Part shown: positions 30,475 to 52,990 of the stretch, one piece after another | Layout of the letters: each line of letters starts with the position of its first letter | How positions within the stretch are numbered: position 1 is the stretch's first letter | NCBI GenBank assembly: GCA_002633005.1 | Contig: NMRA01000794.1 | Location: 58,224 to 122,223, forward strand | Source: Phoronis australis | Taxonomy: Eukaryota; Animalia; Phoronida | DNA length: 64,000 bases | Reading direction: 5' to 3' | Program-made: the position numbers and the translations under genes | Notes under the pieces: model-generated | The model's input: the letters and a program-made list of their open reading frames with translations, nothing else | What the model was told of the DNA's origin: nothing | Databases searched by the model: none

Positions 30475-30607
30475 CTATGGAGAGTCTCTGTAGCCTTTCG
30501 TGATGAGATGCTCACGATCGTCAACAGTGAGGTCTTCAGTCACCGAACCTTCTTTCCAGGGGTTAAGGTCAAATTTAGGGAATTCCATACAAGACTTCCG
30601 GTTATTT
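30475..30607 (-). CDS. Peroxidase last coding exon
   Basis: tttc[45 protein letters not shown]. Confidence 0.9.
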
Positions 30608-32700
30608 CTGAAATATGATTGGAAGTAGCTATAAACTCGCGTCCCTCAAAAATGAAATTCTATTTTAGTCGCCCACTGCTGTCACACGCGAAGTGAATTC
30701 CGCGCTTGGAAAGGAAGTATCATTCGCTGTTCCATGTCTCATCGTGAAGCGACAAATTTTAGAGCTCCGCGGATCTTTAACAATTGGGAGCTCTCATTTT
30801 TACCAAGCTTAAAGAAGCACCTCTTTTCCGAGTACATGACGCAGTTTTCTGCTGGGACAAATGTACAGCTGCACTTCTGAGTTGCACAACCTCTATATGT
30901 ATCATATATTGATGTTTGGCAAAATCAAAAACAGGAAATGAATATCTGGGGTAAAGTAAATACATGCGTTGAGAAGGCAGCGTGCCCTTGTGGTGTGGAC
31001 TGTTACATGTACATGTATATTGACCTTTGACCTCACTCCTGTATTTGAATACGATTTCCCAATGCAGGTTATGATTCCCGTTCACCTCTTCTTGTAATTT
31101 CCACAAGTCGGATGGGTGTCCGCAGTTTCACTCAAGGTCGTGATTTCCAAATCCAGAAGCACACATAAAAGTGGTTGTTCCTGGTGATCGGTGCACTGAG
31201 CCCTCATGAGCGGCCTGCGCACGCCTCGTACACATCGGGTATTCAATGACCTCATACTACGAAAATATCCTACATGTAGGTGTTTTAGAAGAGCCAAAGC
31301 ATCATTAGCCCAGTTTAAATAAAATACTGACATCAGTTCCAGCTAACGAGCCTACACGCACCCGATTCATGACGTATTTAGTTAAATTACTCGCCTCAGC
31401 AGAAAATATAACAATGAAGGAACACGTGCTTACAAGTAGTGAAACTAAAAACGTTGTGCACAGAAGTGGGCAAAGGGTTTCTCGTGGTGCCCATTCTGAG
31501 CACAGGATTTTACGTATTCAAATAAAGCCTGATTGTGACAATTTCACACGTTTTAACTGTAACACCAGCTGTTGGACTCATGCTTGAAGGAATTGCAAAC
31601 CTCACGTATTTTTGTTCATGATATTTTTAGTTTGTGTCGATGAAGGAATTTGCAAAATATAGTTCCTGAGAATGGCAATGGTCTTATTAGCTTGACACGG
31701 GTGCGTGGACAACTACTGGATGTAAGAGCAGGCGCATCCAATGTTCAGGAAAACTACCGTGACACTGGGCGTAGCAAAACACGGTACTTACACTGACTTG
31801 GTTTTAGAAGTTTCCGGTTGATTCTAGGACTTATATCCAGCTTTCTGCCGCTGGAGTTGCAGCCCATAAAAGAGCAGTAAATTTTTGCTTGTTATGGCGC
31901 GAAAGCGAGAATCGATTAACGGGTGTCTTTGCGGCATCGTCGTTGAATTAGATTTAAGTGCCGCTGTGTAATAGGGCAAACAATAATTCTATCTGGGATC
32001 GTCCGCTATTCACGAAGTAGATGAAAAGCTCTACATTCCACGCTTTTTTATGGACGCCGCAATATGGTAATGATAAGACACGTGGCACATTTCACAATGC
32101 GTGACCGTTAGAACATCTACTTTGTCAAAGTCAATATAGATTAAACACGGAAAAATCAAAACTTTAGTAAAACTCGTAAAAAATGTGTCTTCATCCAATT
32201 CCAATTAATTCAGACTCGATCGGAAATGGTAGACCACATGACTCACTAACTTTAATTAAAGTGTTAAAGATATCTGTATGGTTACCACTGGATACGTGTT
32301 TTAATAAGGACGACACCATAGCTTTCCATCAGTGCATTAGTTTGGGTTTGATATACACCGAAATTTTCACTAGCGTCAATACATACATATACTGAAATGG
32401 ACAATTACTCACCCAGGAACATTGTTCATCTTAAATGGATTGGGTTGGATTTCATCCACAAGCATCGAATCACAAAGTATTGAGGAGAACGAGATCTTGC
32501 GAAGTGAAGCCAGTTGCTCTGAAAGCAGCAGTTAATGTCCGTGGTCTCAAAATAATAGCACATCATTGTAAACGGTCTACAACACAATACACCAATAAAA
32601 TACATCAATTTATAATTATTATTATTATTATTATTATTATTGTTATTATTATTATTATTACCATTATCATTATTATTATCATTATTGTTATTATCATTAC

Positions 32701-52500: not shown

Positions 52501-52990
52501 TAACATCATGTAACCTTAAGCCCTCTTTGAGTTTGTTTTTGTGTTTGTGTTTGTATTTGTCATCTAAAGTGGACGGATTTCAGTGGAAAACTTCAATGCA
52601 TGTGCGTGTGACGGTAGTCGAGTGAGTACCCATGATGCACGAGTGAGCTGTCACTCACTTTTGCGATCATTCTTTAAGGAATGAAACATTGAAGTAGTTT
52701 TGCTGAACGAACATTAGATGAGCTAAAGTTCAATGCGAAATCATTGCTCTCCGCCATGATAGGATGCGTGTAAAAATCATTACGGTTGTCTCAAGAAACC
52801 TTTTTATCCGACCCTTCTTAAAGAAATTATGACTCTTACAGTTTCAAAACAAAAATTATAAACAAAATGTGTAACACTGTACCGTCTTCTGTTCCGTTCT
52901 GCTTAGGCTTCAAGTGTATGAAGCAGAAGTAGCCGTAGCACTCTCCTGTATTACAGTCATGGCCGTCACATCGCAGACATTTCATCAGCT
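30475..52990 (-). CDS. Animal heme peroxidase (peroxidase-cyclooxygenase superfamily; peroxinectin/ovoperoxidase/chorion-peroxidase-like) with N-terminal three-finger domain; 16 exons, about 840 aa excluding the leader
   Basis: All 16 exons have AG/GT ends and chain in compatible phases with no stop (2522 nt = 2 + 840 codons including TAG). Motifs: [69 protein letters not shown]. Confidence 0.92.
31700..32050 (-). mobile_element. Highly degraded Gypsy RT-connection/RNase H-like remnant
   Basis: Minus strand fragments [16 protein letters not shown] and TPVAAES resemble L.YYD.....DAS and PVAFAS; very decayed. Confidence 0.3.
32413..32518 (-). CDS. Peroxidase exon
   Basis: [35 protein letters not shown]; phase 1->2. 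Confidence 0.92.
32612..32747. repeat. (ATT)n imperfect microsatellite
   Basis: Visible trinucleotide run in an intron. Confidence 0.95.
32845..33014 (-). CDS. Peroxidase exon
   Basis: [46 protein letters not shown]; phase 2->1. Confidence 0.95.
34641..34746 (-). CDS. Peroxidase exon
   Basis: [34 protein letters not shown]; phase 1->2. Confidence 0.88.
35028..35145 (-). CDS. Peroxidase exon ([14 protein letters not shown])
   Basis: [39 protein letters not shown]; phase 0->1. Confidence 0.95.
36874..37123 (-). CDS. Peroxidase exon with proximal His
   Basis: [26 protein letters not shown]...; phase 2->0. Confidence 0.95.
37511..37763 (-). CDS. Peroxidase exon with distal Arg and heme-linking Glu
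   Basis: [26 protein letters not shown]...[31 protein letters not shown]; phase 1->2. Confidence 0.96.
38383..38680. mobile_element. Composite MITE in peroxidase intron (outer element with a nested second MITE)
   Basis: Inverted ends CGTGGGCGGCGCACTA / TGGTGCGCCGCCCATG; internal GGATCC-type MITE at ~38422-38571. Confidence 0.45.
38730..38939 (-). CDS. Peroxidase exon with Ca-binding loop
   Basis: [29 protein letters not shown]...[15 protein letters not shown]; phase 1->1. Confidence 0.95.
39700..39815 (-). CDS. Peroxidase exon
   Basis: [38 protein letters not shown]; phase 2->1. Confidence 0.95.
40422..40575. repeat. (GT)n microsatellite
   Basis: Long GT run; source of the spurious CVCV/HTHT ORFs. 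Confidence 0.97.
40766..40847 (-). CDS. Peroxidase exon
   Basis: [26 protein letters not shown]; phase 1->2, supplies the CC motif and bridges the flanking exon phases. Confidence 0.85.
41785..42025. repeat. CTG/TTG-rich low-complexity trinucleotide tract
   Basis: Degenerate (GCT)n/(GTT)n in an intron. Confidence 0.8.
42063..42242 (-). CDS. Peroxidase exon with distal His
   Basis: [21 protein letters not shown]...[20 protein letters not shown]; phase 1->1. Confidence 0.96.
42611..42843 (-). CDS. Peroxidase exon (start of catalytic domain)
   Basis: ...[42 protein letters not shown]; phase 2->1. Confidence 0.95.
43341..43473 (-). CDS. Peroxidase pro-region exon
   Basis: [43 protein letters not shown]; phase 1->2. 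Confidence 0.85.
46193..46351 (-). CDS. Peroxidase pro-region exon (helical)
   Basis: [52 protein letters not shown]; tttttcAG / GTgagt, phase 1->1. Confidence 0.82.
47440..49015. repeat. Complex ~100-115-bp satellite-like array with dimeric higher-order structure
   Basis: About a dozen copies of the core ATTTCAACTAATTCAACTATTCCCACTAATCGCTGCACCACCTG; inverted remnants near 48690-48770 and 48970-49015. Confidence 0.85.
49263..49427 (-). CDS. Three-finger (LU-like) domain exon, C-terminal half, spliced to the peroxidase
   Basis: cAG / GTaagt, phase 1->1; [54 protein letters not shown] (RGC and C.C....LCN hallmarks); no stop before the donor. Confidence 0.82.
50460..50698. mobile_element. MITE family with CATGCGCGCACCCAG termini, copy 3
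   Basis: CATGCGCGCACCCAG ... CGGGGTGCGTACATG; body is the reverse complement of copy 1. A partial end lies at ~51810-51867. Confidence 0.7.
52883..52990 (-). CDS. Three-finger (LU-like) domain exon, N-terminal half
   Basis: ccttcAG / GTacag, phase 1->1; [35 protein letters not shown] (KC..C....C....C....C). Confidence 0.8.

Follow-up and report, generated by a model that had tools for sequence, protein, structure and literature searches.

The systems closest to the gene reported here fall into two families, the animal heme peroxidases and the proteins that carry an LU (Ly6/uPAR-like, three-finger) domain; papers are cited by PubMed Central accession. Peroxidasin, of peroxidase-cyclooxygenase family 2, is secreted and has N-terminal domains that engage matrix proteins: laminin is bound by its leucine-rich repeats (LRR), and its association with collagen IV goes through the immunoglobulin (Ig) domains (PMC10657184). 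The peroxinectin-like peroxidases of ecdysozoans belong to family 3. Peroxinectins are defined by an integrin-binding KGD/RGD motif (PMC4420034), and the term 'peroxinectin-like' has been applied to a two-domain salmon-louse enzyme (PMC10579435). The catalytic residues named as essential are the distal Gln, His and Arg, the ester-forming Asp and Glu, a calcium loop, and the proximal His and Asn (PMC3533774). By definition an LU domain is 60-90 residues long, contains 10 Cys, has an Asn that is not glycosylated directly behind Cys10 and folds into three beta-hairpins, with disulfides 1-5, 2-3, 4-6, 7-8 and 9-10; in its gene a signal exon precedes two exons flanked by phase-1 introns, and the intron that divides the domain lies where loop 2 has its tip (PMC6600238). 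The same source grants LU domains no more than the rank of 'proto-modules', seldom combined with unrelated domains. Here we describe a gene in 64,000 nucleotides of DNA from Phoronis australis (contig NMRA01000794.1, positions 58,224 to 122,223; this whole stretch is called the window) in which a ten-cysteine module, very probably an LU domain, is joined to an intact heme peroxidase.

The gene lies on the minus strand of the window and has 17 exons, with its coding part running from 54753 to 30475; joined by RNA-seq, the exons give one open frame of 862 amino acids (Table 1). All 16 introns are GT-AG, and all are backed by stranded RNA-seq reads from three samples. These samples (X2-X4, study P2) were raw 151-nt reads, of which 18-19% of each run was used, mapped on positions 40301-60300 and 25001-42400 of the window. 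A further data set, X1 (study P1), consists of contigs whose RNA nature is a guess; X1-X4 are under one species label. The read counts in X2/X3/X4 were 19/33/41 for junction 54687>52990, 8/20/19 for 52883>49427, 7/30/17 for 49263>46351, 2/20/24 for 46193>43473, 13/24/19 for 43341>42843, 6/24/22 for 42611>42242 and 7/26/35 for 42063>40847. The other nine junctions had 5/19/26, 5/19/27, 9/30/33, 1/51/27, 12/45/41, 9/33/24, 11/47/35, 14/62/50 and 17/44/(26+24) reads; the last of these (donor 32413) is reported with a few letters inside it because of allelic differences beside the donor. Since first mates at all these junctions map to the plus strand only, the transcript is that of the minus strand.

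The original prediction had joined two cysteine-rich exons to each other and to the peroxidase. Both exons lie where it had placed them, with AG acceptors and GT donors, and the two joins involved (52883 to 49427 and 49263 to 46351) are among those read in all three samples. The predicted extent of 30475 to 52990 held at the 3' end and not at the 5' end: the gene is 1.8 kb longer because a signal-peptide exon is spliced in front, so that the first residue of exon 2 is Lys and not Glu. RNA depth is absent upstream of 54975, an in-frame stop precedes the ATG of exon 1, and AATAAA occurs at 30388 and 30316, downstream of the stop codon. The read counts at the junctions of the module are similar to those of the next exons, which argues that most messages carry it; for 40301-60300, 14 weaker joints exist beyond those listed above, and minor exon-skipping forms are possible. 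We conclude that this is one expressed, intact gene with a single spliced message and an open frame. Among the 35 best-supported exonic RNA differences (the two mapped regions hold a further 336 and 30 difference rows), 26 are synonymous and nine are not, compared with 21% synonymous expected (p 3e-11), and the gene as a whole is therefore under purifying selection.

Exons 2 and 3 are 108 and 165 nt long, both multiples of three with phase 1 at their boundaries. Joined, they encode 10 Cys (Cys27 to Cys99, ~75 residues) with spacings of 2, 4, 4, 4, 18, 16, 9, 1 and 5, followed directly by Asn100, which is outside any sequon and is predicted to be non-glycosylated. The ten cysteines ending in Cys-Asn had been recognized before, with one correction: 13 more residues separate this pair from the donor. 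As had also been proposed, the donor at 49263 (gtaagt) matches the acceptor at 46351 in phase, and readthrough stops after nine residues without a hydrophobic tail. Introns 1-3 are all phase 1 and RNA-supported, giving a signal exon and then two exons. The inner intron falls 13 residues after Cys5 and five before Cys6, with five Cys on either side, and we infer that it sits at the tip of loop 2. The module thus agrees with the LU definition in Cys count and length, in the Asn and in the exon layout, with an intron between Cys5 and Cys6. A Gly directly precedes Cys6, a feature remarked on for the three-finger fold (PMC3812095). Loop 1 is short, and the sequon at Asn54 is in the putative loop 2. 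On its minus strand the window has a single copy of the motif CxC..CN. When exons 2+3 were shuffled 200,000 times, 2,020 shuffles (1%) satisfied the three published LU features that shuffling can test, and 34 satisfied six features, three of which were spacing rules picked after seeing the sequence. Judged by its sequence and gene signature, the module would be an LU domain, an assignment that we hold with considerable confidence.

The positions 1-530 of the Pfam An_peroxidase model (PF03098) are spanned by nine exon frames, eight of them above cut-off, and the top PDB matches are LPO and MPO. Every catalytic residue is present (Table 1), as expected from the claim that the heme peroxidase is intact; the Met that forms the sulfonium link in MPO is replaced, since Gln492 follows Glu491. 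Among 121 fetched proteins the best identity was 41.5%, to two-domain ecdysozoan peroxidases, with the closest falling in the range of 40-41.5%. In trees of 67 domains, and of 32 of those 67, the query grouped with these ecdysozoan enzymes and not with Glandiceps, chordate, sponge-like or bacterial sequences. This placement is tentative: the SH-like approximate likelihood ratio test (SH-aLRT) gave 93 for the split and 85 for a sister relation to Priapulus domain 1, from a biased sample and with a long query branch (0.88). 'Peroxinectin-like' is an inferred label for this two-domain group. The phoronid catalytic domain is closest to theirs and its pro-region is weakly homologous, whereas the phoronid protein has a single peroxidase domain, has the 10-Cys module and contains no KGD/RGD ([RK]GD) anywhere in its length. 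Exon 15 has YGD, presumably at the site of the peroxinectin KGD. The 10-Cys module was found in none of the 121 fetched peroxidase proteins. Three two-domain peroxidases (P0022, P0059 and P0066) have a C-terminal Cys-rich segment near residue 1440 with CxC...CN but not the 10-Cys pattern, which is probably another module.

The likeness to peroxidasin is one of arrangement. Both have, here by prediction, secretion and binding domains N-terminal to a pro-region and peroxidase, and they share the same active-site residues, with Glu and without the Met link. In contrast, the query has a small Cys module and lacks LRR, Ig and VWC domains, and its catalytic domain lies outside the Glandiceps/chordate group in trees that contained no named full-length peroxidasin. 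We rejected an identity as peroxidasin, since the 862-residue frame has neither room for nor a Pfam match to LRR, Ig or VWC. Single-LU proteins (CD59, Lynx1, SLURP, quiver, Retroactive) share the signal exon plus two phase-1 exons, the Cys5/Cys6 intron, 10 Cys and the terminal Cys-Asn. Unlike them, the query has no glycosylphosphatidylinositol (GPI) tail or stop after the domain and continues into an enzyme, has a short loop 1, and has CxC where CC is usual, as in SmCD59.2 (PMC3812095). The TGF-beta/activin receptors also place an N-terminal LU domain in a multidomain, enzyme-bearing protein, whereas the query has no transmembrane helix or kinase and its catalytic part is predicted to be extracellular. 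The module's four-residue Cys4-Cys5 spacing, followed by Phe, resembles the pattern of type I receptors.

The signal peptide is the only strongly hydrophobic 19-residue stretch in the protein, and by hydrophobicity no transmembrane or GPI-type segment is present in the 862 residues. Residues of about 132-265 weakly match the pro-regions of P0005 and P0006 in pairwise comparison (E about 3-4e-4), so the module directly precedes an ordinary peroxidase pro-region. From its family, the enzyme would be secreted by way of its N-terminal signal peptide, would bind heme covalently through the Asp and Glu ester links without the MPO sulfonium link, and would use H2O2 to oxidize halide or thiocyanate and, in one-electron steps, tyrosine, as LPO and peroxidasin do. 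The LU module may, by analogy, serve as an address label that would bring oxidant production to its site of use, for local cross-linking of matrix or a secretion or for local antimicrobial halogenation. This analogy is drawn because the module occupies the position of the peroxidasin LRR/Ig domains, before the pro-region, and because LU fingers are protein-binding surfaces (PMC6600238). An insect LU protein directs its partner into the cuticle (PMC3561106). With moderate confidence we favor the reading that the ten-cysteine module, likely an LU domain, is retained and likely docks a predicted secreted peroxidase on a specific extracellular partner or surface. A more tentative suggestion is that this is an undescribed enzyme class, in which a retained three-finger domain may aim a halogenating or cross-linking peroxidase at a receptor, the matrix or a microbe; it would then be the first secreted enzyme in which an LU domain does the targeting.

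Several results weigh against this reading. Structure and profile work treated the two halves of the module (exon 2 and exon 3) separately, with single-sequence models. Searches of each half against Pfam (E up to 10), PDB sequences and a representative library returned no match. The half-models, of low confidence (predicted local distance difference test, pLDDT, of 61.7 and 60.0), have beta-strands and a hairpin between Cys7 and Cys8, features that count in favor of LU; comparison of them with structures gave no three-finger match. In the ESM Atlas exon 2 had no match; for exon 3 the first match was unnamed (0.86) and the second was the TGF-beta receptor II ectodomain PF08917 (0.75, 97/256 features), a lead only, at a score lower than shuffled sequences often attain. 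Of the original prediction, the LU-type Cys signature and exon layout are supported, and the three-finger fold itself is putative. In addition, Cys8 and Cys9 are one residue apart rather than adjacent, only one of the 35 listed RNA differences lies within exons 2-3, at a linker position, no orthologue was found, and dibasic sites at 154 and 160 could free the module together with the pro-region.

The last point leads to the best-surviving alternative. MPO and LPO pro-peptides are cut off, and the module might be cut off with its own pro-region, in which case it would serve folding, trafficking or latency, or be freed as a secreted three-finger protein. Both dibasic sites (KR154 and RK160) are in a pro-region helix downstream of the module, in a protein whose residues of about 132-265 are homologous to peroxidase pro-regions; the module has an acidic isoelectric point (pI) of 5.3, against a basic one of 9.4 for the linker-pro region; and LU proteins are known as trafficking aids (PMC6600238, PMC3561106). 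However, a strict furin motif (R-X-K/R-R) is found nowhere in the protein, and peroxidasin retains its N-terminal domains, being cleaved at its C-terminus (PMC10657184). We regard removal of the module as rather unlikely.

How the fusion arose bears on the next alternative. A symmetric phase 1-1 cassette had been proposed; the module is indeed phase 1-1, but the argument is weak alone because 10 of the 16 introns of the gene are phase 1, as are 6 of the 12 that follow the pro-region exon. An equally good fit is the joining of an entire upstream LU gene, minus its GPI tail, to a downstream peroxidase, since a complete LU gene consists of a signal exon and two LU exons (PMC6600238). Such a fusion could be recent and near-neutral, the LU gene having lost its GPI tail and stop through a new donor, so that it supplies a promoter and signal peptide and the LU domain is a passenger. 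The exact match to a whole LU gene, the commonness of phase symmetry in this gene and the failure to find relatives with the module are all consistent with a passenger. Yet the ten Cys and the Asn are all intact, the module is in most messages, and a search of introns 1-4 for a relic signal exon yielded none that was convincing (one candidate, inside a repeat). The catalytic domain too has no close relatives, which argues that their lack reflects sampling rather than youth. We consider a passenger domain improbable.

To a similarly small degree we entertain the idea that the module is another small disulfide-rich domain that mimics the LU signature. The lack of any profile or structure match for either half, CxC in place of CC, and the 1% of shuffles that satisfy three published features would suit such a domain; against it, the sequence signature, exon layout, intron position and Atlas lead agree. 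CxC is known in invertebrate LU members, and the spacing fits none of the ShK, EGF, VWC and TIL patterns. Finally, a separate gene for the Cys exons, or a join made by assembly artefact, is largely refuted and scarcely credible: although the weaker joints exist and no single read crosses exons 2-3-4 (exon 3, at 165 nt, exceeds the 151-nt reads), reads in three samples cover every junction between the first and the last exon, one 416-nt X1 contig from the second study covers exons 3, 4 and 5, exon 3 has no stop, and no other first exon was seen.

Table 1. Exons of the probable LU-peroxidase gene, with positions in the window
Feature	Position	Strand	Evidence
Exon 1, coding part: ATG and predicted signal peptide (aa 1-22), phase-1 donor	54687..54753	-	RNA junction, hydrophobicity
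Exon 2: first half of LU-like domain, Cys1-Cys5, aa 23-58, N-glycan sequon Asn54	52883..52990	-	RNA junction, sequence
Exon 3: second half of LU-like domain, Cys6-Cys10, Asn100, and 13-aa linker	49263..49427	-	RNA junction, sequence
Exon 4: linker and start of peroxidase pro-region; dibasic KR154, RK160	46193..46351	-	RNA junction, weak pro-region match
Exon 5: pro-region	43341..43473	-	RNA junction, pro-region match
Exon 6: end of pro-region and start of An_peroxidase (model 1-33)	42611..42843	-	Pfam, RNA junction
Exon 7: distal Gln335, Asp338, His339, Asp340	42063..42242	-	Pfam, RNA junction, motifs
Exon 8	40766..40847	-	RNA junctions
Exon 9	39700..39815	-	Pfam, RNA junctions
Exon 10: calcium loop, aa 424-430	38730..38939	-	Pfam, RNA junctions, motifs
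Exon 11: distal Arg488, ester-forming Glu491, Gln492 where MPO has Met	37511..37763	-	Pfam, PDB match, motifs
Exon 12: proximal His591	36874..37123	-	Pfam, RNA junctions, motifs
Exon 13: Asn671, partner of proximal His	35028..35145	-	Pfam, RNA junctions, motifs
Exon 14	34641..34746	-	RNA junctions
Exon 15: YGD sequence	32845..33014	-	Pfam, RNA junctions, motifs
Exon 16: end of An_peroxidase model (500-530)	32413..32518	-	Pfam, RNA junctions
Exon 17, coding part: stop TAG 30477-30475	30475..30607	-	RNA junction, frame

Intronic repeats at 46304-46970, 47638-48971, 50306-50972 and 51640-52306 attracted many partial RNA reads on both strands because of repeat copies elsewhere in the genome. Downstream on the same strand is a separate gene with CUB-domain exons (2018-2254, 4028-4339 and, weakly, 3147-3569, minus; Pfam CUB E 3.6e-10 and 2.5e-11). 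THAP-domain fragments at 6935-7147 (plus), which adjoins a 322-base assembly gap (7150-7471), and 61201-61413 (minus) are likely transposon remnants, and a reverse-transcriptase remnant is present at 63475-63999 (minus; RVT_1 E 5.4e-5, below cut-off). By eye, the frame at 24722-25003 (plus) resembles the remains of the GIY-YIG endonuclease from a Penelope-type element, with no Pfam match.

The architecture had been unfamiliar at the time of the original prediction, and no published description of an LU-peroxidase fusion was found in the literature searched, a search to which subscription papers were largely outside scope and which did not cover InterPro. In 2026, LU architectures were surveyed across 387 invertebrate genomes (PMC13719153). 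The lineage-restricted LU fusions reported there, which this one resembles, have Kunitz, C1q, fibrinogen, Ig, MAM, thioredoxin, permease and GPCR partners; unlike this one, none is to a peroxidase in the text, Table 1 or Fig. 2 legend. That survey was based on Pfam profiles and removed architectures lacking support in close relatives. Table S1 of PMC11595613, as far as it was available, has 48 starfish LU proteins, none named peroxidase, and the available portions of PMC4453069 and PMC13425148 mention invertebrate matrix peroxidases without LU. The pairing of domains is real, expressed and built from two known families, and the LU-peroxidase architecture is probably undescribed.

An expressed LU-peroxidase would be a new architecture for both families. 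It suggests a second, independent route, besides the LRR/Ig domains of peroxidasin, by which hypohalous-acid or dityrosine chemistry may be localized. Short, divergent LU exons can cause profile-based surveys to overlook fusions of this sort, and the small, separable domain offers a direct bait for its ligand.

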